NCBI GenBank assembly: GCA_964418815.1 | Contig: CAYQNQ010000003.1 | Span: forward strand, 5,528 to 45,422 | Length of the DNA stretch: 39,895 nt | Direction: 5' to 3' | Source: an uncultured Hellea sp. | GTDB taxonomy: Bacteria; Pseudomonadota; Alphaproteobacteria; Caulobacterales; Maricaulaceae | Shown here: in pieces, positions 7,698 through 38,939 of the stretch | How positions within the stretch are numbered: the stretch's first letter is position 1 | How the letters are laid out: each line of letters starts with the position of its first letter | Program-made: the position numbers and the translations under genes | The notes under the pieces: generated by a model | Told to the model about the DNA's origin: nothing | Seen by the model: only the letters and a program-made list of their open reading frames with translations | Databases searched by the model: none

Positions 7698-8999
7698 ATG
7701 GAACAATCCTTTTTGCTTCGCCATAGATTGAAACTGTTTATTGCTGTGCTCCTTTTGGGGTTTGTCTTGCTTTGGACTTTCGCCAAGACCAAAATGCAAA
7801 TGGTAGCGCTCTCGAATATGGAGGGCGTCGGTTATGCGCAGCTTACAAACACGTTCAGCAAAATGGGGGCTATTGTTGATGCCGAGACTGAGCCCGGATC
7901 CGTAGATAGAGCACAAGGTTATCGCTATGCGCTGCGGCAAATCGGGCAATGGGAAAGCCTGTTTTTTGGAGATTTCAATGCCCAGACGCCGACGATTTCC
8001 CGCTGTCCATCCCGGCCTTGCAAATACGGGTTTGATAACCCGGATACCACTTATTTGCTCATTGGCCCGCTTTCCAATCAAAACAGTTATATCATTCGAG
8101 GCCAGAAGGGCAGTGTTGCTTACACAACCTATCAGGTTTTCAGCATTGGCAGGGGCGACGGGTTTGGTGGCAGCAGCACTTTAGAAGACAGCCGCATCAG
8201 TTTTGATCAGGACGGGAGTTTTGAGCTTTTTCTGTCAAAATCCAATCCTGACAATTATCCTAATTTCATGGCGCTGCCGGACGGGTTCGGCGCGCAGCTC
8301 ATTGTGCGTCAGCTTTCGCGGGACTGGAATAGGGAAACGGAAAATGCTTTTGCCATCGACGTTCAAACCAGCAATCCGGACGAGCCTGCACCGCCCAAGC
8401 CCCTGAGCCTGCAGGCCTTTGACCGCAGAGCCATGGGACTGAATCGGTTTTTAAACCAGCAGTTCACCCAGTGGCGGGACCGGATTTCAAACGCGCCCGT
8501 CAACGCAATTGAGCACGGTAAAGCTGACCGCGCCGATGGCGGATTTCCGACAAATTTTACGTCTTATATGCGTTACGAAATCGGCAAAGGTGAGGGGCTG
8601 CTTATGGAGATTGAAAAGGTTGACGTGGTCTATGCCAATATTCAGTTGGCATCCCGATGGGCCGAGTCTTTGGTCTATCCGTCCCGAACGGCCTCGTTTA
8701 ATGATTTTCAGGCTTATCTTGATGCTGACGGTGTATATCGCTACGTGATTGCTACTGAAGACCCGGGTGTTCCGAACTGGCTGGATGCGACCGGTTTTCC
8801 GTCTGGCGGCGTGTTTATGCGCTGGCAAACGCCTGAAGGCGATATGCCTAAACCAAAAACCAAATTGATAAAACTTTCCGAGCTCCGTGAACACTTACCA
8901 GCGGCGCATCCAGAATTTACGTCCGCTCAAAGAGCGGAGCAGCTCCGCAAGCGGCACTCCGGGTTTTTACGCCGCCAAAGCCCCGTTTATTTTAAATAA
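7698..8999 (+). CDS. Membrane-anchored hypothetical protein (possibly DUF1214-like)
   Basis: 433 aa with an N-terminal hydrophobic anchor (LKLFIAVLLLGFVLLWTF). The segment GFDNPDTTYLLIGPL...YIIRG...YTTYQVFS resembles, from memory, the NPD..Y core of DUF1214 proteins. The family call is tentative. SD GGGGAA is present. Confidence 0.55.
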   Translation: MEQSFLLRHRLKLFIAVLLLGFVLLWTFAKTKMQMVALSNMEGVGYAQLTNTFSKMGAIVDAETEPGSVDRAQGYRYALRQIGQWESLFFGDFNAQTPTISRCPSRPCKYGFDNPDTTYLLIGPLSNQNSYIIRGQKGSVAYTTYQVFSIGRGDGFGGSSTLEDSRISFDQDGSFELFLSKSNPDNYPNFMALPDGFGAQLIVRQLSRDWNRETENAFAIDVQTSNPDEPAPPKPLSLQAFDRRAMGLNRFLNQQFTQWRDRISNAPVNAIEHGKADRADGGFPTNFTSYMRYEIGKGEGLLMEIEKVDVVYANIQLASRWAESLVYPSRTASFNDFQAYLDADGVYRYVIATEDPGVPNWLDATGFPSGGVFMRWQTPEGDMPKPKTKLIKLSELREHLPAAHPEFTSAQRAEQLRKRHSGFLRRQSPVYFK

Positions 9000-17975: not shown

Positions 17976-20900
17976 ATGCGCTCAATCGTTAAGTGGTGGG
18001 CGAGCAATGCCGTGGCCGCAAATCTGGCGATGTTGATCTTATTGGTTGGCGGCTTTGTCAGTTTTATTCAAATCGAACGCGAAACCATTCCTTATATCGA
18101 GATACCGGGGGCTCAGGTTGCCGTTTCGTGGCCGGGCGCATCCCCCCAAGATGTTGAGGAACAAATTGTCGTTCGAATGGAGGAAGCCTTTACCCAGGTT
18201 CCCGAGGTACACCGTATTTGGTCCGAAGCGAGAGAAGGCTTCGGCGTGGTGGTCGTTCAGGCTAAAAGCAATGTCGATAAAGATAGTTTTTTGCAGGATA
18301 TTCAGCGAAAAATGGACGGGATCAATTCTCTTCCGCCCGCTGCCGAGAGACCTCAGTTCAGGATTTTTTCAAGCGACAATGAAATGATACGATTGGCCGT
18401 ATCCGGTGAGGAAAGCGTATCAGAGCGAACTCTGAAAAGATTTGCCGAAAAAACGCGCCGAGAAGTGGCGGGTCTTGATGACGTTCCATCTGTGGAGCTT
18501 TTCGGTGTCCGGGCCGAAGAGGTCTCCATTGAAATATCAGAGGATGCTCTTCGGCAATACGGCTTGACCTTTCAGGAAGTCGCGGGCGCCATAAGAGGAA
18601 CATCCGTCAATTCGTCGTCCGGTCTGGTAAGAACCAACACCGGCAATATGCAGCTGCGCATGCGCAAGCAGGCGGACTCTCGTGAAGAGTTCGAAAATAT
18701 TACGGTCAAACAACTTAGCAATGGAGCCATCATCAAAGTCAGCGATATCGCCAAAGTCGATGACGGCTTTGAGCAGGTCAATCTATTGGCTACCGTCAAC
18801 GGTAAACGCACTATTCTCGTTCAAGTGATGAGCGGGCCCAATATGGATATTACAAAAATGTCTCGTAATGTTCATGACTATGTCGACGAGCTTGGCGGGC
18901 AAATTCCGGACGGTATATCGATCTCGTTCTGGGATGACCAAGTCGACATGTATCAAGGGCAAGTCGATACAATTATGCGAAATTTTTTGAGCGGCATCAT
19001 ATTGGTGTGTCTGACGTTAATGTTGTTTCTGCGGCCCATCATTGCGTTTTGGGTATCGGTGGGAATCGCGACGGCTTTTGCCGGAGGCTTAGCCTTCCTG
19101 CCTTTGGCAAACGTGTCGCTCAACTTTGTCTCCATATTTTCATTTCTGATGGTGATTGGCGTGATTGTTGATGACGCGATAATTGTTGGCGAGGCCATAC
19201 ATTTTAAAACGGAAGAAGGCGAAACCGGTATTGATGCCGCCGTTAATGGAGCGACCATGGTGCTAAAGCCGGTAATCTTCGCTGTTCTGACAACAATGAT
19301 ATTCTTTGCGCCGTGGATGATGGTTTCTGGCGAAATGAGAGAATTCACGCGTGCCATTTCCTTGGTCGTGATCTTTGCTTTGACATTTTCGCTTGTGGAA
19401 TCGCTTTTGATCCTGCCGGCGCATCTGGCGCATTTAAAGCCGGCTAATCCCAAAAGCCGGATTATGAAGTTCCAAAAACGCATAGCCGATTTTTTGGGGA
19501 CAATTGCCGTCCGAATTTATCGGCCACTCGTTATCAAGGCCATCAAATTTAAATGGGTGACAGCCTCTATATTTGTTGCGGTTATGGTTTTATGCGTGAG
19601 CGTTATGGTCAACGGATTTGTCGGTACAGGCTTTTTCCCCGAAGACGAAACCGATCAAGTAGCCATTAATGTCGACCTACCGGAAGGGACGCCTTATTCC
19701 CGGACTCTGGAAGTGCTAAAGCAAATTCAAATTGCTGAGAAAAATCTTGAAGAAGAAATAGAAGCGGACGGCGGTGAGCTTATTGAAAACTGGTATACCC
19801 GCTCTCGTGACAATCAGGTCCTTGCCCTGGTCAAGCTGGTGCCGCCGGAAACAAGGTCACTCAGCGTAAAAGACACCGCGGAAAGACTGCGCGAACTCAT
19901 AGGCGATGTTCCTGACGCCGAAGCGATTTCAGTCTCTTACGGCAACAATAATAATGGTCCGTCGATCCAATATGTATTAAACGCCACGTCATTTGAGGCT
20001 TTGAATACGGCCGGGGCGGATCTGATGGAAAAGCTTCGTAGTTATGAAGGTGTGTTTAACGTCGTCAATGATCTGGAAAGCGCAGCGGAAGAAGTTCAGT
20101 TTGATCTCAAGCCCGGCGCAGAAGCCCTCGGCATAACCCATGCCGAGGTTGCCCGGCAAATCCGTCAGGGCTTCTTCGGTGAAGAGGTTCAGCGTCTCTC
20201 AAGAGACGGCGAAGACGTTCGCGTCTATGTTCGTTATCCGCGGACAGACCGGGAATCCCTTGATTTTCTCAATTCAATTCGCGTGCGGACTGGGGACGGT
20301 AGAGAGCTTCCGCTAAACTCTGTTGCTGATCTCAGGTTTGAAAAAGGCACGAACCGCATTTTACGCCGCGAAAGACAACGGGCTATTGTTATCAGCGCCG
20401 AGGCGCCGTCCGAACGGGTCAAAGAGATACGAGAACAGCTGGAAGAGTCCTATTTTCCGCAGTTTGATAAACGGCATCCGACCGTGACCCGAGGCAATAT
20501 TGGTGCCTCTCAAGGGGAAAACGAATTTATGGCCGAGCTTCTGGGAAAGCTTTATCCGATTGCGCTTGTTCTGGCCTATGTTCTTATTGCAATTTCGTTC
20601 AGATCCTATTTCGAACCGATCTTGATTTTACTGGCAGCCATCCCGTTTTGCTATTGCGGTATGATAATGGGGCATTTGATAATGGGAAAAGCGATGTCGG
20701 TTTTTTCCCTGCTAGGAATGTTCGCAGCTGCCGGCGTGGCCGTAAATGACAATCTCGTTTTGCTGGATTATGTTCACCGGTTGCGAGACAAAGGAATGGA
20801 TGGCGCTCAGGCCCTGGTTGAAGCGGGCACACGCCGTTTCAGACCTATATTGTTGACTTCTTTGACGACTTTCGTTGGTTTATTGCCTTTGCTTTTTGAT

Positions 20901-21098
20901 CGCTCCCTTCAGGCACAGTCATTGGTTCCAATCGGAATAAGCCTTGCCTTTGGAGTATTGTTCGCGCTCTTTGTGACCTTGTTCTTTGTACCGGCGCTCT
21001 ACGCCATTGGCGCGGATATTCGGCGCGGTCTTTCGACCACAATCAGCGGGATAAGGCACCCCGGCTTTGCGGATAGACTGGCCGCGCGAAACGCCTGA
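17976..21098 (+). CDS. Efflux RND transporter permease (AcrB/AcrD/AcrF superfamily)
   Basis: 1040 aa. It shows 12-TM topology with two large periplasmic loops, conserved TM4-type VIGVIVDDAIIVGE, and a second-half repeat AAGVAVNDNLVLLD. Confidence 0.9.
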   Translation: MRSIVKWWASNAVAANLAMLILLVGGFVSFIQIERETIPYIEIPGAQVAVSWPGASPQDVEEQIVVRMEEAFTQVPEVHRIWSEAREGFGVVVVQAKSNVDKDSFLQDIQRKMDGINSLPPAAERPQFRIFSSDNEMIRLAVSGEESVSERTLKRFAEKTRREVAGLDDVPSVELFGVRAEEVSIEISEDALRQYGLTFQEVAGAIRGTSVNSSSGLVRTNTGNMQLRMRKQADSREEFENITVKQLSNGAIIKVSDIAKVDDGFEQVNLLATVNGKRTILVQVMSGPNMDITKMSRNVHDYVDELGGQIPDGISISFWDDQVDMYQGQVDTIMRNFLSGIILVCLTLMLFLRPIIAFWVSVGIATAFAGGLAFLPLANVSLNFVSIFSFLMVIGVIVDDAIIVGEAIHFKTEEGETGIDAAVNGATMVLKPVIFAVLTTMIFFAPWMMVSGEMREFTRAISLVVIFALTFSLVESLLILPAHLAHLKPANPKSRIMKFQKRIADFLGTIAVRIYRPLVIKAIKFKWVTASIFVAVMVLCVSVMVNGFVGTGFFPEDETDQVAINVDLPEGTPYSRTLEVLKQIQIAEKNLEEEIEADGGELIENWYTRSRDNQVLALVKLVPPETRSLSVKDTAERLRELIGDVPDAEAISVSYGNNNNGPSIQYVLNATSFEALNTAGADLMEKLRSYEGVFNVVNDLESAAEEVQFDLKPGAEALGITHAEVARQIRQGFFGEEVQRLSRDGEDVRVYVRYPRTDRESLDFLNSIRVRTGDGRELPLNSVADLRFEKGTNRILRRERQRAIVISAEAPSERVKEIREQLEESYFPQFDKRHPTVTRGNIGASQGENEFMAELLGKLYPIALVLAYVLIAISFRSYFEPILILLAAIPFCYCGMIMGHLIMGKAMSVFSLLGMFAAAGVAVNDNLVLLDYVHRLRDKGMDGAQALVEAGTRRFRPILLTSLTTFVGLLPLLFDRSLQAQSLVPIGISLAFGVLFALFVTLFFVPALYAIGADIRRGLSTTISGIRHPGFADRLAARNA

Positions 21099-21100
21099 GG

Positions 21101-22567
21101 CTAAGAAGTGGTCTCGGCGGTTTCAGCTGTTTTGAAACCTCTGCGTTCCATGGCGCCCCAGCTGGCCTTTTTATTGGTGAAATGTTGATACACACCTTTC
21201 ATGCGCCAGAACGAACTCATCTGGCGATACCCAAAGTTTTCGATGGTTGCGACGAGCAGCAAGGTGATCAAATGGCGGGGTTTGTGAAACCGCTCAATTT
21301 CGTCCTGCTCGATAAAGATCGCCATAGTGCTGATGAATATACCGAAGCTGAAAATGAGCGCCGTATAGGCCAGAAAATATTTCACGCTAAGCCAGCCCAG
21401 CAAAACAAATATTGGCATCAAAAGCAGACCTAAAAGTTCCACAACGGGACCAATAATATCGACCAGTAAAAAGAGCGGCATTGTCAACATACCGAGGCGT
21501 CCAAACCGCGGATTAAACAGCATATATCGGTGGCGCGACAGACATTCGATTGCGCCTCTTTGCCAGCGCACTCTTTGGCGGCCGAGAACTTTGAGGTTTT
21601 CCGGAACTTCGGTCCAGCAGACGGGTTCGGGAATATACATCACTTCGTAAGGGTCGCCCAGATCGTGCATGTAATTGTGCATTTTCAAAACGAGTTCGAG
21701 ATCTTCACCCACGGTGGAGGTATCATAGCCGCCGACTTCGACAGCTATTTCGCGTCTGAATATGCCAAATGCCCCGGATATCAATGTGAGCGTGCCTTTG
21801 CGGCTGGCGGCCAGACGGGCCATTAAAAAGGCGCGAATATATTCTACGACTTGAATACGGGCCAAAAATTTCTTTGGAATGTCATAGTGTTCGACATGAC
21901 CGTTTCGGATTGTGCAACCATTGACAATTCCGATGGTGCCGCCAACGGCGATGACGTTCTTCGACGATTCAATAAAAGGGCGAACCGCTTTTAGCAGGGC
22001 GTTCGGATCCAGAAGAGAATCTGCATCGATGACGCAAAACAGCGGTGTGCGCACGCAGGTCAGACCTGCGTTAATGGCATCGGCCTTTTTCCCGTTTTCT
22101 TTATCCAGCAAGATCAGATTGGGATATTTGTCCGAGCCGTATATCTGTTTGATGGGTTTATGGGTGATATTCCCAACATCTCTGACCCGGTTAATCGGGT
22201 GCATTTCAAAGGCATTGATCATTTTCTCTGCCGTATCGTCAGAAGATCCGTCATTAATGACCACTATTTGAAAGTCAGGGTAATGGAGATTGAGCAGGGC
22301 CATAACGCTTTCGCGAATAGTAGCTTCTTCATTATAGGCCGGCACGACGATTGAGATCGGCAGGAAGGTTTCAGATCTTAAGAGCTCCCACTCTGCATGA
22401 CCATCGTCCTTTTGAGACCTTTCATTAATCTCCAGCCAGGCATGAGGAATGCTCCATGCATATACAATATTCTGGATCAGCCCCACAAGAATAATCAGGA
22501 CTGACAAGACTATGATCGTCGTTTGAGCCCAAGGGGGGAGATAAATAGCCTGTTGAAACACGAGCAT
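21101..22567 (-). CDS. Processive family-2 glycosyltransferase / polysaccharide synthase (PgaC/IcaA/NodC-like)
   Basis: 488 aa. It has an N-terminal TM, then ISIVVPAYNEE, INDGSSDDT, a DAD (DxD), GEDLEL, and QRVRWQRG (the Q-x-x-R-W motif of processive synthases). C-terminal TM helices follow. I see no PilZ-like domain. Confidence 0.85.
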   Translation of the reverse strand: MLVFQQAIYLPPWAQTTIIVLSVLIILVGLIQNIVYAWSIPHAWLEINERSQKDDGHAEWELLRSETFLPISIVVPAYNEEATIRESVMALLNLHYPDFQIVVINDGSSDDTAEKMINAFEMHPINRVRDVGNITHKPIKQIYGSDKYPNLILLDKENGKKADAINAGLTCVRTPLFCVIDADSLLDPNALLKAVRPFIESSKNVIAVGGTIGIVNGCTIRNGHVEHYDIPKKFLARIQVVEYIRAFLMARLAASRKGTLTLISGAFGIFRREIAVEVGGYDTSTVGEDLELVLKMHNYMHDLGDPYEVMYIPEPVCWTEVPENLKVLGRQRVRWQRGAIECLSRHRYMLFNPRFGRLGMLTMPLFLLVDIIGPVVELLGLLLMPIFVLLGWLSVKYFLAYTALIFSFGIFISTMAIFIEQDEIERFHKPRHLITLLLVATIENFGYRQMSSFWRMKGVYQHFTNKKASWGAMERRGFKTAETAETTS

Positions 22568-22569
22568 GA

Positions 22570-23784
22570 TCAGCGCTCTTTCATCACGTCAACGGCCAGA
22601 TCGCCAACGGCGTCAGGCTGTCTGGATATCACCCGAACGAGTGTCTCGCCGGATTGACCGGAATTCAAGGCGGCCTGCATGGCCCAGTACCGAACCCACA
22701 TAAACGGGTCTCTCATAAGGCGGTAAATATCGGCAAAGCAGTCTGTGCGCTTTTGCCGGGCTGCAATTTTTAAAGATCTGATTTTAACCTTGCGGCTGTG
22801 ATCCGTAAGCCCTTCCAGCAGCAGGTCCGATTGCCCCGAGTTCTGGCTGATTGTGGAAAGCTCGACAGCGGCGGCGCGCACCCGCTCATCACGGTGTTGA
22901 ATAAAGCTGCCGAGCTCCAGATCAAAATGCTCGGGCCTTAACAATATCAGGGTTTCCAGAACACCGGATATGATCGTCGGGTTTTGGCTGCGAATTGCCA
23001 TGGACTGTATGCGCGGAATGGCGTCCTGACCAAAACGGCTCAAGACATCTGCGAGAATTTTTTCGTCTTTCGGGAACGCAAAGGTCAGAGCCTCACAAAC
23101 TTCAGAAATAAGGCTTTGTACTTCGCGCCGAGCAATACAGCGCGCAACGCTTAAACGGACATATTTGTCACTGGAATATAGATGATTACAGATGGTTTTA
23201 AGAGACGAGCTCGTATCCAGAAAAGACAAGACATGGAAGGCCCGCATGCGTTTACCGCGATTGCCCCATGTTATCGCCGCTTGTACCACCTTTTCCAAGT
23301 TAAGGCGCTCGACAATGGTTTTGAGCTTTTCGGCATCATCGCCTTTGACCATCTTGAAATATTTCAAAAGGCCGGCCGTAACGGCGGTGCGGTCAGACCG
23401 AATATCCGAGGGTAGCGTTATATTTTTTGGAAGATCTTTTTCCGCAAGCAGCTCTCGAAGGTAGGATTCAAACCGGACCTGCCGGCTTTGAATTTGAAAC
23501 TGTTTTTTATTGCGTCTGACTCGGCGAATACTCAGCCAAAGGGCCACGCCGAGTGACGAGAGGATCAAACATGCCGAAATACACCAGAGGGTGAATAACA
23601 GGACGTTCTCAATATTTTTGAGTAAGTCCAACATTAAAGCCGTCCCGTATGTAAACACCTTTTCTGTTATCGAGAGAATAAGTGCCGTGAATGTTAGTAT
23701 TATCGCTAAGTTGATAAGAGAGCCCGCCAAACACGCTTTCCGTACTGATAGCGACGCCGTCAACGGTTTCAGGGGCGTTGGCAT
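22570..23784 (-). CDS. Membrane-anchored HEAT-repeat protein (alternative start at 23634)
   Basis: 404 aa from the ATG at 23784, which overlaps the upstream gene by 176 nt. From the ATG at 23634 it is 354 aa with a 26-nt overlap. It has one or two N-terminal TM helices followed by RRVRRNKK (cytoplasmic side). Repeated HEAT/PBS-lyase-like units follow (DKYVRLSVARCIA, DERVRAAAVELS, SRKVKIRSLKIAA, FMWVRYWAMQAAL). Confidence 0.7.
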   Translation of the reverse strand: MPTPLKPLTASLSVRKACLAGSLINLAIILTFTALILSITEKVFTYGTALMLDLLKNIENVLLFTLWCISACLILSSLGVALWLSIRRVRRNKKQFQIQSRQVRFESYLRELLAEKDLPKNITLPSDIRSDRTAVTAGLLKYFKMVKGDDAEKLKTIVERLNLEKVVQAAITWGNRGKRMRAFHVLSFLDTSSSLKTICNHLYSSDKYVRLSVARCIARREVQSLISEVCEALTFAFPKDEKILADVLSRFGQDAIPRIQSMAIRSQNPTIISGVLETLILLRPEHFDLELGSFIQHRDERVRAAAVELSTISQNSGQSDLLLEGLTDHSRKVKIRSLKIAARQKRTDCFADIYRLMRDPFMWVRYWAMQAALNSGQSGETLVRVISRQPDAVGDLAVDVMKER

Positions 23785-24757
23785 AACCTAAACGCGCGCT
23801 TAGCCTATCAGTGACAGGCGTGAGACCCGAGAACAGAAATCCGGTTTGGTCAGCTTGGCCGTCCTGCATGACATGGATCAGGCGGCTCGTGAAAACCATA
23901 CCGTTGTCCAGATAAGCCACAAGTTCCGGCGTGACCTGATGGACATCACCAGTCAGGCCATAATCATCGAACTGGTAACCGACGGAGGAGTGAATAATCG
24001 TGTCATTGCCCAGATCGAACTTATAGCCAACGCGGCCAAGGCCCGTGAAATCCGCTCTGAAATCGGCATCCGGCGTGAATCCAGCGCCGATTTCCCAGTT
24101 AAAGTCACTGTTTGAGTTAGATCTTAGACCGGCCATGAACTGAAGGTCATTGAGACCAAATCGTTCATATCGGCTTGCCGATCCGAAAACTGCAAAGCGG
24201 CCCGGAACATACTCAACACGCACGGACTGGGTGTTCCAATCCGCCTGACCATTATTAAAGGAGCTGATTTCGCTGCTCGCATCAATGCGCCAATTATAAT
24301 CTGTGCCGAGTTTATCGGCTCTGGCTCCGGCCACACGTTTCAGGCCCTTTCGCGCGTCCTCATATCCGGGATAGTTTTCAAGAACTTGATTGAAATAATA
24401 TTCAGCCTGATCCAGGTCTTCGCGATAATATTCCAGATATCCGTATCCGTTCTGGATGTCGGGATTACCGGGGTAAGCCGTGAGAAGACTTTCATATTCT
24501 GCGGCTGAAGCTTCATGATCGCCCGCCCAGGCTAGGATACGCGCCCGCGTAAAACGGACATCATAGCTTTGTTTAACGTCATATGGCTGCTGACTTATCA
24601 GTTCCAGCGCCGCCGCATGTTTTTCATCGCCGGCTAAGACTAGGGCCTGGGCTGAAATATCTTCAGGCGTACTGGCATAAGCCCATAATGGTAAAAGGAC
24701 CGCAAACGCTGTTCCCAGGAGTATGGCTTGTCCAAACTTTCTAAATTTACGCAGCAT
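23609..24757 (-). CDS. Outer-membrane protein: N-terminal TPR repeats + YaiO-like beta-barrel
   Basis: 382 aa. Signal peptide ends ...LWAYA/S. TPR-like helices include (AAEYESLLTAYPGNPDIQNGYGYLEYYREDLDQAEYYFNQVLENYPGYEDA). The C-terminal ~230 aa show an alternating beta-strand pattern ending in ...VGLTQKY (terminal aromatic). The YaiO family assignment is from memory of TIGR04390-type annotations. Confidence 0.7.
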   Translation of the reverse strand: MLRKFRKFGQAILLGTAFAVLLPLWAYASTPEDISAQALVLAGDEKHAAALELISQQPYDVKQSYDVRFTRARILAWAGDHEASAAEYESLLTAYPGNPDIQNGYGYLEYYREDLDQAEYYFNQVLENYPGYEDARKGLKRVAGARADKLGTDYNWRIDASSEISSFNNGQADWNTQSVRVEYVPGRFAVFGSASRYERFGLNDLQFMAGLRSNSNSDFNWEIGAGFTPDADFRADFTGLGRVGYKFDLGNDTIIHSSVGYQFDDYGLTGDVHQVTPELVAYLDNGMVFTSRLIHVMQDGQADQTGFLFSGLTPVTDRLSARLGYANAPETVDGVAISTESVFGGLSYQLSDNTNIHGTYSLDNRKGVYIRDGFNVGLTQKY

Positions 24758-25934
24758 TTTTCTCTACCCTCAAATGTCTGATGGCTCGCAGAACGATTTC
24801 GTCCGGATTAAACGGCTTGGTTATGTAGTCGGTTGCGCCTCGCTCTAACCAAGTAATGGCATCATCCTTGTTGGTCATGGCGGTGACGAGCATAACAGGA
24901 ATGGATTTAAGGCTAATTTCCTGCTGAATCTGATACAGGACAGCCCCGCCTTCCAGTCGCGGCATCATCCGGTCCAATACAATAAGGTCCGGCTTTTGAT
25001 TGCGCAGATATTCCAGACCCTCAATGCCGTCATTTGCCGTATCGACACGAATTCCGTAGGCTTCAAACCGGCTTTTCAGGAGATCTCGAACGGCTTTGTC
25101 ATCATCGACAATCAGGACGTGATGCTGCGATTTTTTAAGCAGTTCCTTGGCATGATTGAGAATAGGCTCAATCTCGCGATTTTTTTCGAAACAATCGGTT
25201 ACGCCAGCCTGAACAGCCGCCACGATCTCGTCCGGATCATCGCTACTCATAATCATAATGACCGGTGTTTGGGACAGGCCTTCAACATTTCGAATAAAGC
25301 GAGTCATATCGATCCCTGTCATGTCTTTGAGGGACTGCTCTGTGATAACAAGGTCCGGATTGTTATTGACTGCAATGGCCATGGCCTGATGCGCGCTGCC
25401 AATTGCGACGACCTCATAGTCAGCTGACATGAGCGTTTGAAACGTTTCCAGCATGGCCGGATCGCTGTGAACAAGTAAAACCGAGGGCTTTTGGCCATTA
25501 GAGCCAAGGCCCCCGGTTTTGATCGAGACAGTTTTCCAACGGTCAGGGGTAGGGTCATGTTGGAAAGATTCTGCCCCAAATTCGGCTTTTTCGGGCATGT
25601 TCACCTGCGCCTGAATTTCATCTATTTTTTGCAGGATTTTCAGGCACAGGGATTGCCCCATGGCCATATTCTGGTTTTGGTCAGAGCTCAGGAAGTTTTC
25701 GAGTTCACGGGCACGGTCTCCGAGGTCTTGGTAACCATACATGAGCGCATTTCCGCTGATTTTATGGGCCATACCCACGGCGGCCATACGGATTTCAGGC
25801 GTGAGATTACGAGCCTTTAATGCCTCAAGAGCCGCCTCGAATTTCGAGCGAGCCACCGCCAGATAGTCCATATAATTCTGGACGGCTTTGTGGTGTTCTT
25901 TTTCGTATGCAGTTTTCACCAATTTACCCTGCAC
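24747..25934 (-). CDS. Hpt domain + degenerate receiver + canonical receiver protein (no output domain)
   Basis: 395 aa with a GTG start. The Hpt-like motif is AHKISGNALMYG. REC1 is VLLVHSDP...DLVITEQ...IMIMSS, with Glu where the phospho-Asp is expected. REC2 is VLIVDDD...DLIVLDRMMP...VTAM...KPF (canonical). Confidence 0.8.
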   Translation of the reverse strand: MQGKLVKTAYEKEHHKAVQNYMDYLAVARSKFEAALEALKARNLTPEIRMAAVGMAHKISGNALMYGYQDLGDRARELENFLSSDQNQNMAMGQSLCLKILQKIDEIQAQVNMPEKAEFGAESFQHDPTPDRWKTVSIKTGGLGSNGQKPSVLLVHSDPAMLETFQTLMSADYEVVAIGSAHQAMAIAVNNNPDLVITEQSLKDMTGIDMTRFIRNVEGLSQTPVIMIMSSDDPDEIVAAVQAGVTDCFEKNREIEPILNHAKELLKKSQHHVLIVDDDKAVRDLLKSRFEAYGIRVDTANDGIEGLEYLRNQKPDLIVLDRMMPRLEGGAVLYQIQQEISLKSIPVMLVTAMTNKDDAITWLERGATDYITKPFNPDEIVLRAIRHLRVEKNAA

Positions 25935-26101
25935 GCTGTGTGCACCCTCACAGCATGACCCTAACCGAGACAGAACTTAGCAAAAGAAGGTTTATTCGCC
26001 GTTTAGAGGCGTAGTTAATTTTCCGTATAATTCAGTCTATAGCGGGCTTGCGGTCAGTCGGTGATAGGCCTAAACCCCGAGCATAAATCTGGACCTTTTA
26101 C

Positions 26102-27661: not shown

Positions 27662-27751
27662 TCAGTAAGAGAGAGACAACTCATCAATTCGACAAGTTAA
27701 CCGGCATTTACGAGAGAGTGTGTGAATGCTAACTGAACGTTGAGAGGACCT

Positions 27752-28450
27752 ATGAGCCAAAATTTATCTGACATTCAGCTACGTGTAATTCCTGTAACCC
27801 CGCTCCAGCAAAATTGCTCTATGCTATGGGATATAGCGACTATGGAAGGCGTATTTGTTGATCCGGGCGGCGAGCCTGAAAAGCTGCTGAAAACCGCCAA
27901 AGAGGCAGGTGTCACCATTAAGGAGTTATGGCTGACCCATGGTCATCTGGATCACGCGGGGGGCGCCGAGGATATTCGCGCCGAGCTCGGGGTTCCGGTC
28001 ATAGGGCCTCATGAAGATGATCTCTTCTGGCTTGAGCAAATCGAAGCCTCTTATGCCAAATATGGCATGCCTGGTATGGGAAAGGATGTGGTCCCGGATA
28101 GATATTTGAAAGACGGGGACGTTTTAACCTTAGGGAAAATGGAATTTGGCGTGGCTCACACACCCGGCCACACACCGGGCCATGTTGTTATTTACAATAA
28201 GGATCTAAAAATTGCTTTTGTGGGTGATGTACTGTTTCGGGGCAGCATTGGCCGTACGGATTTCCCCAGAGGGGATCATGCGACACTGATCAAATCCATT
28301 CAGGAAAAACTCTGGCCGCTGGGGTCTGATATGCGCTTTGTCCCGGGTCACGGCCCGGCCAGCACATTCGGGCAGGAACGGGCGAATAACCCCTATGTCG
28401 CTGATAATGTCATCGGGACTGCCGGAGAAAATACGACCGGGGTTATGTAA
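27752..28450 (+). CDS. MBL-fold metallo-hydrolase (glyoxalase II-like)
   Basis: 232 aa from the ATG at 27752 (SD GAGGA). It carries the metallo-beta-lactamase motif THGHLDHAGG, plus a later HTPGHTPGH and a GDVLFRGSIGRTDFP segment. Confidence 0.85.
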   Translation: MSQNLSDIQLRVIPVTPLQQNCSMLWDIATMEGVFVDPGGEPEKLLKTAKEAGVTIKELWLTHGHLDHAGGAEDIRAELGVPVIGPHEDDLFWLEQIEASYAKYGMPGMGKDVVPDRYLKDGDVLTLGKMEFGVAHTPGHTPGHVVIYNKDLKIAFVGDVLFRGSIGRTDFPRGDHATLIKSIQEKLWPLGSDMRFVPGHGPASTFGQERANNPYVADNVIGTAGENTTGVM

Positions 28451-28451
28451 A

Positions 28452-29033
28452 TTGAAAGCCCAGAACCGAAAATTTGTGAAAATCTGTCTGGATTCGCTAC
28501 CGCTCCAAAACCCGGTCTACGAATTTGGAGCCTTGCAAGTTCATGAAGCTGAAACCGACAAGAAGTACATCAAGGATCTTATTGCGCCAAAGCATGAATA
28601 TGTGGGGTGCGATATGCGCCCCGGGCCGGGCGTCGATCAGGTTCAAAACCTGCACAAACTTGATATCGGAGATGGCATTGTCGGGAGTATATTTTCATTG
28701 GATACGCTTGAGCATGTCGAATATCCCCGCAGAGCTGTAAGAGAAATGCACCGTGTTCTGGCTCCAAATGGAATTCTAATCATGAGTTCCGTGTTCGAAT
28801 TTCCAATCCATGGATATCCCAGCGACTATTGGCGGTTTACCCCCAATGCCTTTCGATCCCTTATGAAAATTTTTGCCGAGTGCCGAGTTTATTCATTTGG
28901 CCCCAGTGAAACACGGCCTCAGGTCGTGATTGGGGTCGGATTCAAAACCAAACCTGGCGACATATCCACATTCGAAAAAAAGGCTGAAAATTGGGAAATC
29001 TGGCATAACAAGCTCTCCAGAAAGCCAATGTAA
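28452..29033 (+). CDS. Class I SAM-dependent methyltransferase (Methyltransf_11-like); start uncertain (TTG 28452 or GTG 28476)
   Basis: Motif I-like VYEFGAL, then YVGCDMRPGPGVD, SIFSLDTLEHVEYPRRAVREMHRVLAPNGILIMS. The ORF-track start at 28338 would overlap the MBL gene by 113 nt and adds no recognisable domain. Confidence 0.7.
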   Translation: MKAQNRKFVKICLDSLPLQNPVYEFGALQVHEAETDKKYIKDLIAPKHEYVGCDMRPGPGVDQVQNLHKLDIGDGIVGSIFSLDTLEHVEYPRRAVREMHRVLAPNGILIMSSVFEFPIHGYPSDYWRFTPNAFRSLMKIFAECRVYSFGPSETRPQVVIGVGFKTKPGDISTFEKKAENWEIWHNKLSRKPM

Positions 29034-29823: not shown

Positions 29824-29982
29824 CGCGATAAGCCCGATTCCCACTCATCAATGGCGCTAAGCCATTAGAAAAAGGCATGCTATTTGCTATAATCAACTGC
29901 ATGAACAGTTTGTAAAGACGTGCTTTTTCAAATATTTTGAATGTACCTCAAACTAAATATATAGAAGGTGAGTGGGGTTTTT

Positions 29983-31284
29983 ATGTCCAAAATACTCAAG
30001 AAATCCGGACTATTGGCTGTATCTATTACGGCTATTAGTTCTATATCAGCTATTGCTGGCGGCGGCCATGTTCCGCCCCTGCCAAGCGCTATTCCAGCCA
30101 ATCCAAATGCTGGTGAATGCTATACCCGCGTAAAGGTTCCGGCCCGTTTTGATGCAAGCCATCAACAAGTCCTGGTTCAGGAAGGCTACACGGAATATCA
30201 GGTGGAGCAGCCCATGATTTCCAGCCGAGCGCAGGAAGTGATGACCAAAGAACCCGGCGTTGAATACCGGGTCCGTCAGCCGCGCTACTCAACTGTAACC
30301 GAGCAAATGATGGTGCGTCCTGCCTATGAAAAACTGCAGGTCTCTCCGCCGGAGTTTCAAACCAGAACGGAAACTCAGCAGGTTACCGGCCCGCGCCTCG
30401 TCTGGAAAAAAGGAAATCCAGCGACCTTGCGCGCCCAAGGTTATGTTATCCACTCCACAGCAGATGGCGGTCCTCATGGACAGGGCTATCACTCTACAAC
30501 GCAATATGGCGCTTCGCGTTCCGAAGCGACGCTTTGTGGTAATTCTTGCGAAATCTGGTGCCTCGTGGAAGAGCCGGGTCAATCGGTTAGTTTTACACGC
30601 CGGGTCATGACAAAACCGTCCACGGTTCACCGCGTACCGGTTGCGGCCAAATATCAGTCAATTACCAAGCAGGTTCTGGTGGATCCGGGCGGCGTCGAGG
30701 AAATTCCGATTCCGGCCCAGTATCAAACGGTCATGGTTGAGGATGTTTTGCCGGCCCGCGCTTTCGTAGGACAGGAAGTCCCGGCGCAGTATGACAATGT
30801 ATCCGTTCAGGTCCCTGTCGAAGACGAGCGTTGGGAATGGCGCCGTGTGGTTTGCGAAACCGGAACTTATCTGGAGCCGAATCCAACCGCGCCGACTTAC
30901 TCTCACAGTTCATCCAGCTATAGCGGTCATTCTTCCGGTTATGTAGCGCCGCCTGCAACCCATGCACCGGCTCCAGCGCGGACTTATCAGCGTCAAAGCG
31001 GAACACACTATGATTATGAAGGCGTCGTTTGCGGTGATAGCCGCAAAGGCGATTGTTACGGCAAAGATGTTATAGACGCCTATAACCGCAGCCAGAGCCG
31101 GCAAGGCCACAGCCGTTCCGGCGGCGCGCAGCATCACAGCGGTAGCTATTCAGGCGGACATTCGCAAGGAAGCTATAGCAGCGGAACGACCTATGATCGG
31201 GCCCAAGGCTATTACAATGACGCCCGCCGGGCTCACGGTGCCTATGAAGATGTTAAACGGCGCAAACGGGGCCGCCGCCGATAA
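29983..31284 (+). CDS. Secreted repeat protein of unknown function with a Ser/Gly/His/Tyr-rich tail and polybasic C-terminus
   Basis: 433 aa from the ATG at 29983 (SD GGTGAG/GGGG). It has a signal-peptide-like N-terminus (LLAVSITAISSISAIAGG). At least seven copies of a P-x-x-[YF]-x-x-[VIT]...V unit are present. A low-complexity tail follows, and the protein ends KRRKRGRRR. Confidence 0.7.
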   Translation: MSKILKKSGLLAVSITAISSISAIAGGGHVPPLPSAIPANPNAGECYTRVKVPARFDASHQQVLVQEGYTEYQVEQPMISSRAQEVMTKEPGVEYRVRQPRYSTVTEQMMVRPAYEKLQVSPPEFQTRTETQQVTGPRLVWKKGNPATLRAQGYVIHSTADGGPHGQGYHSTTQYGASRSEATLCGNSCEIWCLVEEPGQSVSFTRRVMTKPSTVHRVPVAAKYQSITKQVLVDPGGVEEIPIPAQYQTVMVEDVLPARAFVGQEVPAQYDNVSVQVPVEDERWEWRRVVCETGTYLEPNPTAPTYSHSSSSYSGHSSGYVAPPATHAPAPARTYQRQSGTHYDYEGVVCGDSRKGDCYGKDVIDAYNRSQSRQGHSRSGGAQHHSGSYSGGHSQGSYSSGTTYDRAQGYYNDARRAHGAYEDVKRRKRGRRR

Positions 31285-35956: not shown

Positions 35957-36359
35957 AAAAGATCCCGACCCTTGGGACAAGGGCCAGGAAGGGAATTACC
36001 TTGGTGGAGGTAATAAATGATGCGGGGAGGGACGACCCGCACACAAGGGATGACACATTAATGGCGGAACCCGCCGGAAAAATCACTTAAAGCTTACGCC
36101 ACATTTTTGTGACTCTGGGTGACAGAAACGTGAGACGACGTGAACACATTCTGTGCGGAGCTATGGTTAATATATGAGTCGGGTCCCGGCGCCCGCATTG
36201 CGCCCAGTTATCGGGCTATTGATCATTGGATTGGGCTAAACGTGGTAGTCCAGCCTGTTTCATATAGATCTCATACCGGGGCCCACCACGCCTATGTAAA
36301 TTCCTCTTGATAATTTTTTATGTATCGCCAAATTGCCATCTTCTGAGTTGGGGGACTTA

Positions 36360-38939
36360 ATGGCCGATAATAATCAAAATGACGAATATGAATCCGTCGA
36401 TTTTTACAGGACGCACAGCCAATCCGTAGATAACGGGTTTTCAAGATTTTCAGTCGGCGGAAAATATTATTTTTGTTATTATGCTGACGGCGACGTATTT
36501 CTAATCAGCCAGGCCTATACGGCAGAGAAGGGCCGGGATAACGGCATAGAGTCGGTCCGGAAAAATGCGCAAATCCAAAAACGCTTTCGAATTGGTGAGC
36601 GCAGGGATGGCCGAATGGGCGTCAGTCTTGTTGCGGGAAATCATCAGGAAATCGCTGTCTCCGGCCCAATTGCGTCCCAGGCCCGTGCGCAGTCGCTGAT
36701 TTCAAAGATGAGCGGATCGTCCAGACTTGAAACAACCGGAGCGGCCAAAGTGCCAAAAAAAGCGAAGGTAAAGCCAGCACCTGCAAGAAAATCCAGAGAG
36801 CAGGATTACCGTCCCTTGGCGTTTTATCAAAACAATGTCGACAGTTCGGTTGATGGATTCACGACGTTTGTGGGTGAAGACGACCTGCATTATTTTACAT
36901 ATAATGTAGACAGCCGAATCGAGCTTATATCCGAAGGATATGGCAGCGAAGATGCCATGCTAAACGGCGTCGACTCTGTTATTCGAAATATGCCGGATGT
37001 TGACCGATATGTTTTCAAGAAATTTAAGAGCGGCAAACGCGATTACAGGATAAAAGCGCGTAACGGTAAGGAAATTGCCCGGTCTGTCTGGTATGATTCG
37101 CTGGAAGGCGCCGAGCAGGGCGCCGGATCGGTTCGTTCTTTTTTTGACGGCCGCGCGCCTTCCGGTGCCACGCGGACGCGCCGGTCCTGGTATGCTGGGA
37201 GCCGGGGATATGTTCAGAAGCCCATGGATACTTATTATGTCCAGAAAGAAAAACCCCGGAAACGACCAGCCAAAACAGATGAGCTGGAAACCCAAAAGCG
37301 GCGTAACAAAGCCTCTAATCTGGAAGCGGCTAAATCCAAAACGTCTCCTGTAGAAAAGCGAAAATCAGCGCCCTCTCTATCCAAGAAAGCCAAGTCAAAA
37401 CCACGATTGAGCGGAGCTGGCCGCGCCAGTGCTTTAGCCGCCTCAATTTCCGGAGCGAAGCCTGCCAAAGCTGCCAAACCCAAAGCAACAAAGCCTAAAG
37501 CAACAAAATCTAAGTCGGCAAAACCAAAGACAAGCAGTGCCGCGAAAACGGTCAAGCCCAAAACGTCGCCTGCGAAAATTATCAAGGTGAAAGCCAAAGC
37601 CGTTGCGGCGCCGGTTGAAAAACCGAAAGTCAAAAAGGTCAAAGCGAAAGCGAAACCAAAAGCGGCGGTTAAAACAACGTCTAAAAAACCTGCCGCAAAA
37701 AAACCGGCGCCGAAGCCGGTTGCGGTTAAGAAGCCGGTCACCGCCAAGAAAGCGCGGATAGCGCCGAAGGCGGCAGCGCCCACGAAATCCAAGGTCAAGC
37801 AGACGAAAGTTAAAGTGAAAAGGGTCAAAGCGAAAACCGTTCGTACGGTTGCTGCCAAGCCCAAAGTCAAGCGGGTTAAAGTTAAACCGGCCGCAATTGC
37901 GGCGGCCGCTGCCGGTACGGCTATAGCAGCCAAGGCTGCTGCGGATATAGCTCCGGCCAAACCGGTTGAGCCCAGGATTGAAAAACCTGTTATTCCCAAG
38001 GCCGCCGCGCCAACGCCAACTCCAACGCCCAGACCAGTTCCGCCTCCGCCCCCTCCGCCCACACCTGCGCCGGTTATGTCAGAGGCTGCTCCCGTAGCTG
38101 CGCCAATTGCTGCCCCTGTTGCGGCTAAGGCCGCTGCCATCGGCACAGGGACCGCCGCAGCTGTCGCGACGGGACAGGCCGGCGGCGGCTTTAGATGGAT
38201 CTGGCTGCTATTGCCTCTATTATTAATACTGGCATTATTCGGATTAAAGCAATGTATCCCTGCGAAAACGGCGGTCACGCCGGTGCTTGCCGAATCTGAG
38301 GCCAGCACAGCCGTGGAAGCCGTGAAAGACATTACGGAACCGGCCTTGGAAGCGCCGCCCGCAGTGGAACCGCCGCCCGCGCCAGAGCCGACGCCTGAAC
38401 CCGCACCCGCACCCGAGCCCATGCCGGAGCCGGTCGAACCCGTGGTCGAGACCGTCCCAGAACCAGTTGTCATAGCTGAAAAACCCATGCCTAAACCAAT
38501 AGAGGCCATCAGCTATTGTGGACCGTCCAATGTTTCGATTTTCAACGTTGCAGATAATTCGGCGCCCAAAAACGTCACAAGGCTCGGAACTTATCCGGAG
38601 TTTGGTGACAGCCATGGTCTTACGCCGGCGCAATTTTATGACAAATTGAATCTGCGCTATCAGACCAATGACTTTGACCGAAAATATCTGGACTATTTAT
38701 TCCGGTCGATGGGATATAGTCAGGGGTTTGCAGACGCCAAAGCCGCATATTTTTCTGATGATACACTTGTTCGGGGCTCCAAGGGATTACTCGGATATGG
38801 ACCTTTCCACGGACTGGAGTATTCACAGCTCAATGTGGCATCAGACCGGGATTTACGGGCTTTCCGCATTCAGGCTGCCAATGGCTCCAGTGTCTATTTC
38901 ATGAAAACCTGCGGCAATTATATGTATGTTTGTCAGTAA
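36360..38939 (+). CDS. Chimeric single-pass membrane protein: 4 YegP/DUF1508-like repeats + Lys/Ala/Pro-rich tract + TM + Pro/Glu-rich spacer + orphan C-terminal domain
   Basis: 859 aa from the ATG at 36360 (SD GGGGGA; the ORF track begins at a TTG at 36333). The YegP-like units are ...LISQAYTAEKGRDNGIESVRKNA, ...EIAVSGPIASQARAQSLISKM, ...LISEGYGSEDAMLNGVDSVIRNM and ...GKEIARSVWYDSLEGAEQGAGSVRSFF. KP/KA-rich repeats follow. The TM helix is FRWIWLLLPLLLILALFGL, followed by a PEPxPEP spacer. Confidence 0.75.
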   Translation: MADNNQNDEYESVDFYRTHSQSVDNGFSRFSVGGKYYFCYYADGDVFLISQAYTAEKGRDNGIESVRKNAQIQKRFRIGERRDGRMGVSLVAGNHQEIAVSGPIASQARAQSLISKMSGSSRLETTGAAKVPKKAKVKPAPARKSREQDYRPLAFYQNNVDSSVDGFTTFVGEDDLHYFTYNVDSRIELISEGYGSEDAMLNGVDSVIRNMPDVDRYVFKKFKSGKRDYRIKARNGKEIARSVWYDSLEGAEQGAGSVRSFFDGRAPSGATRTRRSWYAGSRGYVQKPMDTYYVQKEKPRKRPAKTDELETQKRRNKASNLEAAKSKTSPVEKRKSAPSLSKKAKSKPRLSGAGRASALAASISGAKPAKAAKPKATKPKATKSKSAKPKTSSAAKTVKPKTSPAKIIKVKAKAVAAPVEKPKVKKVKAKAKPKAAVKTTSKKPAAKKPAPKPVAVKKPVTAKKARIAPKAAAPTKSKVKQTKVKVKRVKAKTVRTVAAKPKVKRVKVKPAAIAAAAAGTAIAAKAAADIAPAKPVEPRIEKPVIPKAAAPTPTPTPRPVPPPPPPPTPAPVMSEAAPVAAPIAAPVAAKAAAIGTGTAAAVATGQAGGGFRWIWLLLPLLLILALFGLKQCIPAKTAVTPVLAESEASTAVEAVKDITEPALEAPPAVEPPPAPEPTPEPAPAPEPMPEPVEPVVETVPEPVVIAEKPMPKPIEAISYCGPSNVSIFNVADNSAPKNVTRLGTYPEFGDSHGLTPAQFYDKLNLRYQTNDFDRKYLDYLFRSMGYSQGFADAKAAYFSDDTLVRGSKGLLGYGPFHGLEYSQLNVASDRDLRAFRIQAANGSSVYFMKTCGNYMYVCQ

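Follow-up and report, generated by a model that had tools for sequence, protein, structure and literature searches.

The locus described here raises the question of what is made and exported by the products of four adjacent genes, and whether they belong to a polysaccharide system that is already known. The genes lie on the minus strand at 21101-25934 of a 39,895-nucleotide (nt) stretch of DNA from an uncultured Hellea sp. (assembly GCA_964418815.1, contig CAYQNQ010000003.1); this whole stretch is called the window below. They encode a Hpt-REC-REC phosphorelay protein (gene 1), a tetratricopeptide repeat (TPR) protein with a YaiO-family barrel (gene 2), a membrane-anchored HEAT-repeat protein (gene 3) and a membrane glycosyltransferase of family 2 (GT2; gene 4). 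Synthase-dependent polysaccharide systems (cellulose, poly-N-acetylglucosamine, alginate, Pel, Nfr) underlie biofilm formation, and to our knowledge nearly all of them are switched by cyclic di-GMP (c-di-GMP). We consider it probable that the four genes encode a synthase-dependent exopolysaccharide system of an uncharacterised type, for which we infer a polymer and a mechanism below. The locus itself appears to be one member of a very large REC + HEAT + GT2 family that extends over bacterial phyla and haloarchaea.

A conserved four-gene operon

Four open reading frames (ORFs) were found on the minus strand, at 24747-25934, 23609-24757, 22570-23784 and 21101-22567. Genes 1 and 2 overlap by 11 nt (ATGctgcgTAA, 24747-24757), and genes 3 and 4 are separated by a 2-nt gap (TGAtcATG), which spans 22565-22572 and not 22567-22572 as an earlier reading of the bare letters had it (the sequence-only reading). 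That reading left the overlap of genes 2 and 3 at either 26 or 176 nt. The 176-nt overlap, with its 404-amino-acid (aa) HEAT start, is ruled out because the homologues in three relatives (loci L001, L002 and L004) begin at the downstream ATG; they are called at 354-360 aa and begin ML[DGA]L, matching the window ATG at 23634. The overlap is 26 nt, and the same overlap is kept in relatives. The tight packing and coupling of the four genes was thus read correctly at the outset, and the four genes are one operon.

Six independent close relatives (L001, L002, L004, L093, L094 and L095; 57-83% GT2 identity) carry the same four genes in the same order between different flanks, and for this reason the arrangement is judged, from sequence comparison, to be far beyond chance. 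All four proteins diverge in parallel among the relatives, as expected for a co-inherited unit. Co-occurrence of the four genes in related genomes, on which the first proposal had been made to depend, was found in all six close relatives sampled.

A wider genome scan, with the GT2 alignment run against one genome per species, returned at least 479 relatives. Among the matches listed by the scan are 80 loci with 38-52% GT2 identity; closer genomes are not among them, and the locus counts given below (n = 63, 68 and 30) rest on these matches. The loci come from Alpha-, Beta-, Gamma- and Deltaproteobacteria, Bdellovibrionota, Verrucomicrobiota, Balneolaceae, Acidobacteriota, Gemmatimonadota, Nitrospirota, Elusimicrobia, Patescibacteria, Actinobacteria and Firmicutes, and the GT2 family is also represented in Bacteroidota, Deinococcus and haloarchaea. 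The gene immediately upstream of the GT2 gene encodes a HEAT_2 protein in 62 of 63 homologous loci, and HEAT-GT2 adjacency spans more than 15 phyla as well as a haloarchaeal plasmid. A Mesorhizobium ciceri plasmid has the order histidine kinase-response regulator-response regulator-YaiO-HEAT-GT2-Hpt and a Deinococcus radiophilus plasmid TPR-HEAT-GT2. The Haloarcula halophila plasmid NZ_CP119560.1 (23702-27830; L087) carries response regulator-HEAT-GT2-GAF histidine kinase, its GT2 being 42% identical to that of the window, which indicates that the module crosses the boundary between bacteria and archaea. Every annotated copy inspected has generic PGAP product names only. Conservation of the trio of GT2, HEAT protein and YaiO-TPR protein, as first suggested, is seen in the six close relatives; more widely, the conserved core is HEAT + GT2, usually with a REC protein, and the barrel is facultative.

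The synthase and its HEAT-repeat partner

Gene 4 (21101-22567, minus strand) encodes a membrane GT2 synthase of 488 aa, assigned from Pfam, NCBIfam, AlphaFold2 (AF2), Foldseek and its motifs. A transmembrane (TM) segment at residues ~13-37 precedes a GT-A domain (~68-345), a C-terminal helical/TM block (353-463) and a conserved cytoplasmic tail motif; hydropathy gives one N-terminal and about three C-terminal TM segments, together with amphipathic helices. Pfam matches are Glycos_transf_2 (85.5 bits), Glyco_tranf_2_3 (85.0 bits) and, over residues 307-457, Chitin_synth_2 (30.2 bits). The best curated family is PgaC_IcaA (TIGR03937; 153.8 bits, E 6e-45), below its cut-off of 422.3. CelA (TIGR03030) scores 57.5 bits against a cut-off of 699 and NodC 54 bits, and no NCBIfam equivalog covers the protein. 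Sequence searches of the PDB with the GT2 and the HEAT protein matched generic entries only.

The motifs DAD (181-183), GED (287-289) and QRVRW (331-335) are all present, and D106, D181/D183, E288-D289 and Q331-R-x-R-W335 are invariant in 83 of 83 GT2 family sequences. The C-terminal tail carries a further motif, W470-G-x-M-x-R475, of which the tryptophan is kept in 82 and the arginine in 80 of the 83. In the hyaluronan synthase CvHAS a WGTRG gating loop is essential, and its Trp, Gly and Arg are required for activity (PMC11750622); judged by its letters, the WGxMxR tail resembles that loop. The AF2 model (pLDDT 76, pTM 0.79) gave full-length Foldseek matches to the hyaluronan synthases of a Chlorella virus (CvHAS, E 9e-14) and Xenopus (XlHAS1), BcsA, the yeast and oomycete chitin synthases (Chs1) and plant CesA. 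The first 17 matches are all processive polymer synthases; the non-processive PcManGT and ArnC are also in the list. The sequence-only reading had seen a processive-synthase motif set with flanking TM helices, and both survive scrutiny; by fold, too, the protein groups with the processive, channel-forming synthases and not with non-processive GT2s. From motifs and fold we infer a processive inner-membrane synthase.

Gene 3 (22570-23634, minus strand, ATG at 23634) encodes a predicted bitopic inner-membrane protein of 354 aa, identified by HEAT_2 (44.3 bits; 45.1 bits for the 354-aa form), by the starts of its homologues and by its TM topology. A single N-terminal TM helix (residues 11-36) is followed by RRVRRNKK and then by an alpha-solenoid, which is placed in the cytoplasm because this positive-inside signal stands directly after the helix. 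A profile of 63 sequences of the HEAT family matches PBS-lyase/alphaRep-type HEAT proteins, which are generic protein-binding scaffolds. Gene neighbourhood pairs the HEAT protein with the GT2 so regularly that it would be an obligatory partner in physical contact with the synthase, and its TM helix may contribute to a putative TM channel of the GT2.

The predicted outer-membrane protein and downstream genes

Gene 2 (23609-24757, minus strand) encodes a predicted outer-membrane export protein of 382 aa. A signal peptide (residues 1-28, ..LWAYA|ST) is followed by about four TPR-like helix pairs (31-152) and a 14-strand barrel (156-381) whose C-terminus, ..LTQKY, ends in Tyr. The YaiO domain TIGR04390 matches residues 156-381 with 92.9 bits against a cut-off of 32, covering model positions 1-229 of 230; Pfam YaiO (PF19413) scores 32.5 bits against 23.9, and TPR models also match. 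The TPR region weakly matches the PgaA model TIGR03939 (20.8 against a cut-off of 366.65). In the AF2 model (pLDDT 89.3) 14 strands are formed, and the best Foldseek match is BcsC (9b8a, E 2.7e-11), followed by OmpG, with PelB at rank 21. The first description of the gene product as a signal peptide, TPR helices and a small YaiO-like barrel with an aromatic end is borne out, and a TPR + barrel porin of the outer membrane is predicted.

Of 68 loci, 26 have TPR and/or YaiO matches, and at least 19 of these have the barrel itself, counting family-specific profile coverage and Pfam together; the 30 loci from Firmicutes and Actinobacteria have no such match. Absence from all 30 is the pattern predicted by an exported polymer. 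In Proteobacteria, Verrucomicrobiota and Bdellovibrionales the barrel gene precedes the HEAT gene, and in Balneolaceae and a Stenotrophomonas metagenome-assembled genome it follows the GT2 gene. As judged from these loci, the barrel seems to be an add-on to the HEAT + GT2 core in organisms with an outer membrane. The suggestion that pairing of a YaiO barrel with a GT2 is recurrent is supported by the at least 19 loci and by the yaiO/yaiP cluster of E. coli.

The genes that follow the synthase differ among relatives. In L002, a 68%-identical relative, a 623-aa protein with a CE4 polysaccharide deacetylase domain is encoded directly downstream of the GT2 gene (L002:9464-11332); comparison of this protein with PgaB gave no significant sequence similarity, and CE4 deacetylases make up 2 of 50 downstream genes, L002 included. 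Two other loci (L040:9607-11976 and L030:3837-6239) have, as the next gene after the GT2 or barrel gene, one for a sulfatase-family membrane protein of 790-800 aa. By size and family these proteins may be transferases of the LtaS, OpgB or BcsG kind, in which case the polymer of some lineages would carry phospho-substituents. In Bacillaceae a conserved protein of ~1085 aa with no Pfam match follows the GT2 (L028:8379-11636, L042:8382-11648, L047:8227-11478), and after it come a single REC protein and a hybrid kinase of ~960 aa. The ~1085-aa protein may be the counterpart of the export or processing module in bacteria that have no outer membrane.

The phosphorelay regulator

Gene 1 (24747-25934, minus strand, GTG start) encodes a cytoplasmic phosphorelay protein of 395 aa, for which Pfam gives Hpt with 27.1 bits (cut-off 24.6) and Response_reg with 155 bits in two stretches. 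The protein has neither an output domain nor a hydrophobic or TM segment. The Hpt domain (residues 39-109; 25608-25820, minus strand) contains the phosphorylatable His57 within AHKISG (25752-25766), and this histidine is kept in 8 of 8 aligned Hpt-REC-REC sequences, namely the window protein and seven homologues. REC1 (residues ~151-262; 25149-25484, minus strand) is, by alignment, a degenerate pseudo-receiver: LLVHSDP puts HSD in place of DDD, Glu199 (VITEQS) replaces the phospho-accepting Asp and the conserved Lys is lost. L001, L002 and L004 show the same degeneration; in the relatives L006, L008, L013 and L081, from Alphaproteobacteria and Bdellovibrionales, REC1 has the canonical residues (DDD, D, KPF). 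REC2 (residues 273-382; 24789-25118, minus strand), located by Pfam and alignment, is a canonical receiver with an acidic pocket (D277-D279), the phospho-acceptor D321 (IVLDRMMP), T351 and K373, all conserved in the alignment. Where distant loci encode a REC protein of one domain only, it aligns to REC2 of the window protein (profile positions ~266-388). The architecture given by the sequence-only reading, Hpt-REC-REC with no output domain, is therefore correct, with the amendment that REC1 is a pseudo-receiver in this lineage, its Asp being replaced by Glu199 and its Lys lost.

The regulator gene is kept in the operon in L001, L002, L004, L093-L095, L006, L008, L013 and L081. Of 68 loci with enough flank, 50 have a REC gene within the operon or next to it, and in L095 a dCache-PAS hybrid kinase and an extra REC protein adjoin the operon.

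Proposed mechanism and the question of c-di-GMP

We picture the system as follows. The GT2, to judge from its motifs and fold, would polymerise a nucleotide-sugar and thread the chain across the inner membrane. The sugar is most likely, on weak grounds, a UDP-N-acetylhexosamine such as UDP-GlcNAc, which would give a beta-linked polymer; the suggestion is made because PgaC_IcaA and Chitin_synth_2 are the nearest families, a hyaluronan synthase is the top fold match and CE4 deacetylases occur among the downstream genes. The TM helix of the HEAT protein would probably pack against the few TM helices of the GT2, supplementing a small TM bundle, and the solenoid would lie under the catalytic domain, where it would serve for docking or regulation and take the regulatory input. 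In organisms with an outer membrane, the TPR + 14-strand YaiO barrel protein would receive the chain in the periplasm and pass it through that membrane. The Hpt-pseudo-REC-REC protein would set output post-translationally. An unlinked hybrid histidine kinase would phosphorylate His57, the phosphoryl group would move to Asp321 of REC2, and phospho-REC2 would act on the HEAT/GT2 complex; the residues are in place, and it is the flow between them and the target that we propose. The action of phospho-REC2 may be exerted through the conserved C-terminal WGxMxR loop of the GT2.

Several observations weigh against this picture. Only about four TM helices are predicted in the GT2, and its model, of moderate confidence with a pLDDT of 76, reaches a TM-score of ~0.5 against solved synthases. 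With 14 strands, the barrel is narrower than the porins of known exopolysaccharide systems, which have 16-18. The HEAT-GT2 and REC-HEAT contacts are read from gene neighbourhood only. The choice of sugar is tentative, as the L002 deacetylase is unlike PgaB and other relatives carry sulfatase-family transferases. Control by a REC protein is not universal, since 18 of 68 loci have no nearby REC gene, and no kinase was found among window ORFs of at least 150 aa, the set covered by the domain scans outside the operon. Lastly, in Bacillales and Paenibacillus the regulator encoded directly upstream of HEAT-GT2 is Hpt-REC-GGDEF-REC (L028:4312-5931, L055:4234-5934, L042, L047 and L065), so that c-di-GMP would be involved in part of the family. 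We note that this domain order is itself unusual, with a diguanylate cyclase placed between the two receivers.

These regulators bear directly on the alternative that survives best, namely that the synthase is controlled by c-di-GMP at a cryptic site on the HEAT/GT2 complex and that the Hpt-REC-REC protein is merely an upstream or auxiliary input. Of 8 Hpt-REC-GGDEF-REC regulators, 5 have an intact GGEEF and 4 the RxxD I-site, and in Ruminococcus loci a GGDEF-EAL protein is encoded downstream. PgaC/PgaD is reported to bind c-di-GMP at a subunit interface with no recognisable domain, and for this reason the lack of PilZ or MshEN is no proof against such control. Set against this, the four proteins and the scanned window ORFs contain no GGDEF, EAL, PilZ or MshEN domain, the operons of the close relatives are all free of GGDEF, and it is REC, not GGDEF, that is conserved across phyla, the haloarchaeal locus included. 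We regard c-di-GMP control of this kind as unlikely. For the family at large, c-di-GMP appears to be wired into one part, and the receiver domain appears to be the element conserved throughout. The original preference for phosphotransfer rather than c-di-GMP is nevertheless not established, given that relatives insert GGDEF in the same regulator and that the Ruminococcus loci carry GGDEF-EAL.

Comparison with known systems

The Pga/Ica system offers the closest curated match. Like the window locus, it is a four-gene operon in which a membrane GT2 of the PgaC/IcaA/NodC/HAS branch is accompanied by a small membrane protein encoded next to it and by a TPR + barrel protein for export across the outer membrane. 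It is conceivable that the locus is a divergent Pga-type system making poly-beta-1,6-GlcNAc, with the barrel protein as a miniature PgaA and the HEAT protein in place of PgaD. Sequence gives this some encouragement, in that the best NCBIfam match is PgaC_IcaA, the window GT2 and E. coli PgaC are 25% identical (E 4e-29), the TPR region weakly matches the PgaA model and a CE4 deacetylase gene follows the GT2 gene in L002. The differences are larger. PgaC_IcaA reaches 153.8 against an equivalog cut-off of 422.3 and PgaA 20.8 against 366.65. The partner is a 354-aa HEAT solenoid, whereas PgaD has 137 aa; the barrel protein is a 14-strand, 382-aa member of the YaiO family, whereas PgaA has 807 aa. 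The barrel of PgaA has 16 strands. The operon has no PgaB and does have a dedicated Hpt-REC-REC protein, and neither a CE4 domain nor a PgaD-like gene was found in the operon and the scanned window. Between the L002 deacetylase and PgaB there is no sequence relationship, other relatives have sulfatase-family transferases rather than a deacetylase, and the fold list is headed by beta-1,3/1,4 synthases (hyaluronan, cellulose, chitin), with no PgaC structure found in the PDB searches. Identity with Pga is ruled out by the two scores and the lack of PgaB and PgaD, and a divergent system making the Pga polymer seems to us quite improbable.

The Bcs system shares the processive GT2 fold, BcsA being among the Foldseek matches, and BcsC is the best structural match of the window TPR + barrel protein. 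The window system differs in having no PilZ domain and no BcsB, in a CelA score of 57.5 bits against a cut-off of 699, and in a gating-like motif, WGxMxR, where BcsA has FxVTxK; BcsC, moreover, is about three times the size of the window barrel protein. The CelA score and the lack of a PilZ or BcsB domain rule out identity with Bcs. More generally, no BcsB-like subunit and no PilZ, MshEN, PgaD or PelD receptor was recognised in the four proteins or the scanned window ORFs, in agreement with the first inspection; nor was Alg44 recognised there. The claim that there is no deacetylase holds for this locus in the domain scans, and fails for the family, as L002 shows.

In structure, the full length of the GT2 is matched best by class I hyaluronan synthases and chitin synthases. 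The GT2 family shares with them a WG...R-type loop after the last helices, and Chitin_synth_2 matches residues 307-457; their sequence identity to the window GT2 is only 13-17%. These enzymes work singly or as homo-oligomers, in the membranes of monoderms or eukaryotes, and we know of no hyaluronan or chitin synthase that has a HEAT partner, is regulated by a REC protein or works with an outer-membrane porin.

The E. coli K-12 cluster yaiS-yaiP-yaiX-yaiO (L005, 380069-384616) is co-directional, with yaiX split by IS2. The statement in the sequence-only reading that yaiO sits next to yaiP is right as to the cluster and wrong as to direct adjacency, since yaiX lies between. Like the window operon, this cluster encodes a YaiO-family barrel with a membrane GT2 and is uncharacterised. 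YaiP, however, is only 23% identical to the window GT2 (E 1e-10) and lacks the Gln of QxxRW, and YaiO has no TPR domain and no significant pairwise similarity to the window barrel. The cluster has no HEAT or REC gene, its accessories being an acyltransferase and a deacetylase, and no LmbE-type deacetylase or acyltransferase of this sort was found at the window locus. With YaiP a 23% paralogue, identity is ruled out and the cluster serves as an analogy only. If there is a YaiO-dependent glycan system in E. coli K-12, it may be inactive in that strain, with yaiX split by IS2.

Nfr is like the locus in that it pairs a minimal synthase with an exporter of the outer membrane. NfrB has next to no similarity to the window GT2 (BLASTP E 0.002 over 44 residues) and carries the annotation of a c-di-GMP-activated glycosyltransferase; NfrA has 990 aa. 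NfrB has a C-terminal MshEN domain, whereas the window GT2 contains no MshEN or T2SSE_N domain; the E value and the missing MshEN rule out identity with Nfr. Xanthomonas xagABCD and sfz of the iron-oxidizing bacteria (FeOB) are likewise four-gene operons with a PgaC-like GT2 and an uncharacterised biofilm polysaccharide. The XagB-like Sfz2 is reported to have ~690 aa, an N-terminal T2SS-E-type domain and a BcsB-like partner (PMC8250860). This architecture is unlike a 488-aa GT2 with a HEAT partner, the distinction being drawn from the published description. The Stenotrophomonas locus L040 (HEAT-GT2-TPR/YaiO-sulfatase), which had been considered as an xag equivalent, is unsupported as such on the same descriptive ground, the architecture of Sfz2 being different.

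It is very improbable that the GT2 makes a short oligosaccharide (as NodC does), a glycolipid or a lipid-linked sugar, with the barrel as an unrelated porin or uptake channel: the roughly four predicted TM helices (as in NodC), the NodC score of 54 bits, the presence of PcManGT and ArnC in the fold list and the OmpG-like 14-strand barrel would allow it, but QRxRW and ED are invariant and the gating-loop-like motif nearly so, the first 17 fold matches are all processive polymer synthases and the BcsC/PelB-like TPR + barrel is missing from all 30 Firmicutes/Actinobacteria loci.

A search of open-access full text found no study of a HEAT-GT2/YaiO system, and there is no named equivalent in NCBIfam or PGAP annotation; on these three sources the locus is not an already named exopolysaccharide locus. 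It would thus appear to work like a synthase-dependent system while belonging to none of Pga, Bcs, Nfr and E. coli yaiO/yaiP.

Implications

If the synthase-dependent reading is right, the locus defines a further family with a new obligatory subunit, the membrane-anchored HEAT solenoid, and one notable for a two-component receiver built into the operon. The barrel protein would be the smallest TPR-porin so far associated with a synthase-dependent system. Characterising one member would name a polymer made by many environmental microbes, would test direct phosphorylation gating of a processive synthase and would assign a role to the YaiO barrels, among them the orphan of E. coli. A bolder view, which we put forward tentatively and with more doubt than conviction, is that REC + HEAT + GT2 is an ancient synthase class of bacteria and archaea in which a phospho-receiver switches the processive synthase on or off directly through the HEAT adaptor, unlike the c-di-GMP paradigm, and that TPR-YaiO is an unrecognised and widespread route for glycans through the outer membrane.

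Flanking regions and other features of the window

The operon is flanked by genes unrelated to polysaccharide synthesis, with a convergent RND efflux pump on one side and the divergent hisS on the other. The RND pump gene (17976-21098) ends 2 bp from the GT2 stop (window 21098-21101), too close for a terminator to fit between the two transcription units. The 167-bp intergenic region shared with hisS (25935-26101) is presumed to hold the operon promoter. Promoter and terminator scans of the locus gave nothing above shuffled sequence; a weak sigma-70-like match on the minus strand (26108-26080, 9/12) is no better than the shuffled expectation. Farther out in the window are type I secretion components, TonB receptors, prfB and others. 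The scanned window ORFs include no histidine kinase and, in the flanks, no polysaccharide-related gene; deacetylase, BcsB, PilZ, MshEN and GGDEF domains were found neither there nor in the four proteins.

Some further features of the window were recorded. An 868-aa ORF with a TTG start (36333-38939, plus strand) has two DUF1508/YegP-like modules in its translation, which Pfam reports as one stretch. After the modules the protein continues with a histone-H1-like stretch of ~300 aa, of low complexity and rich in Lys, Ala and Pro, then with a Pro-rich tract and a TM segment, and its C-terminal domain has no Pfam match; a spurious 424-aa ORF lies on the opposite strand. The AT skew is extreme (0.338) at 37001-38000, in the region of this ORF. 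Two plus-strand ORFs, 7698-8999 (433 aa) and 29968-31284 (438 aa), have no Pfam match at E <= 1e-4. An MBL-fold gene (27740-28450) and a methyltransferase ORF (28338-29033), both on the plus strand, share 113 nt as listed, probably because the methyltransferase ORF was given a TTG start too far upstream.

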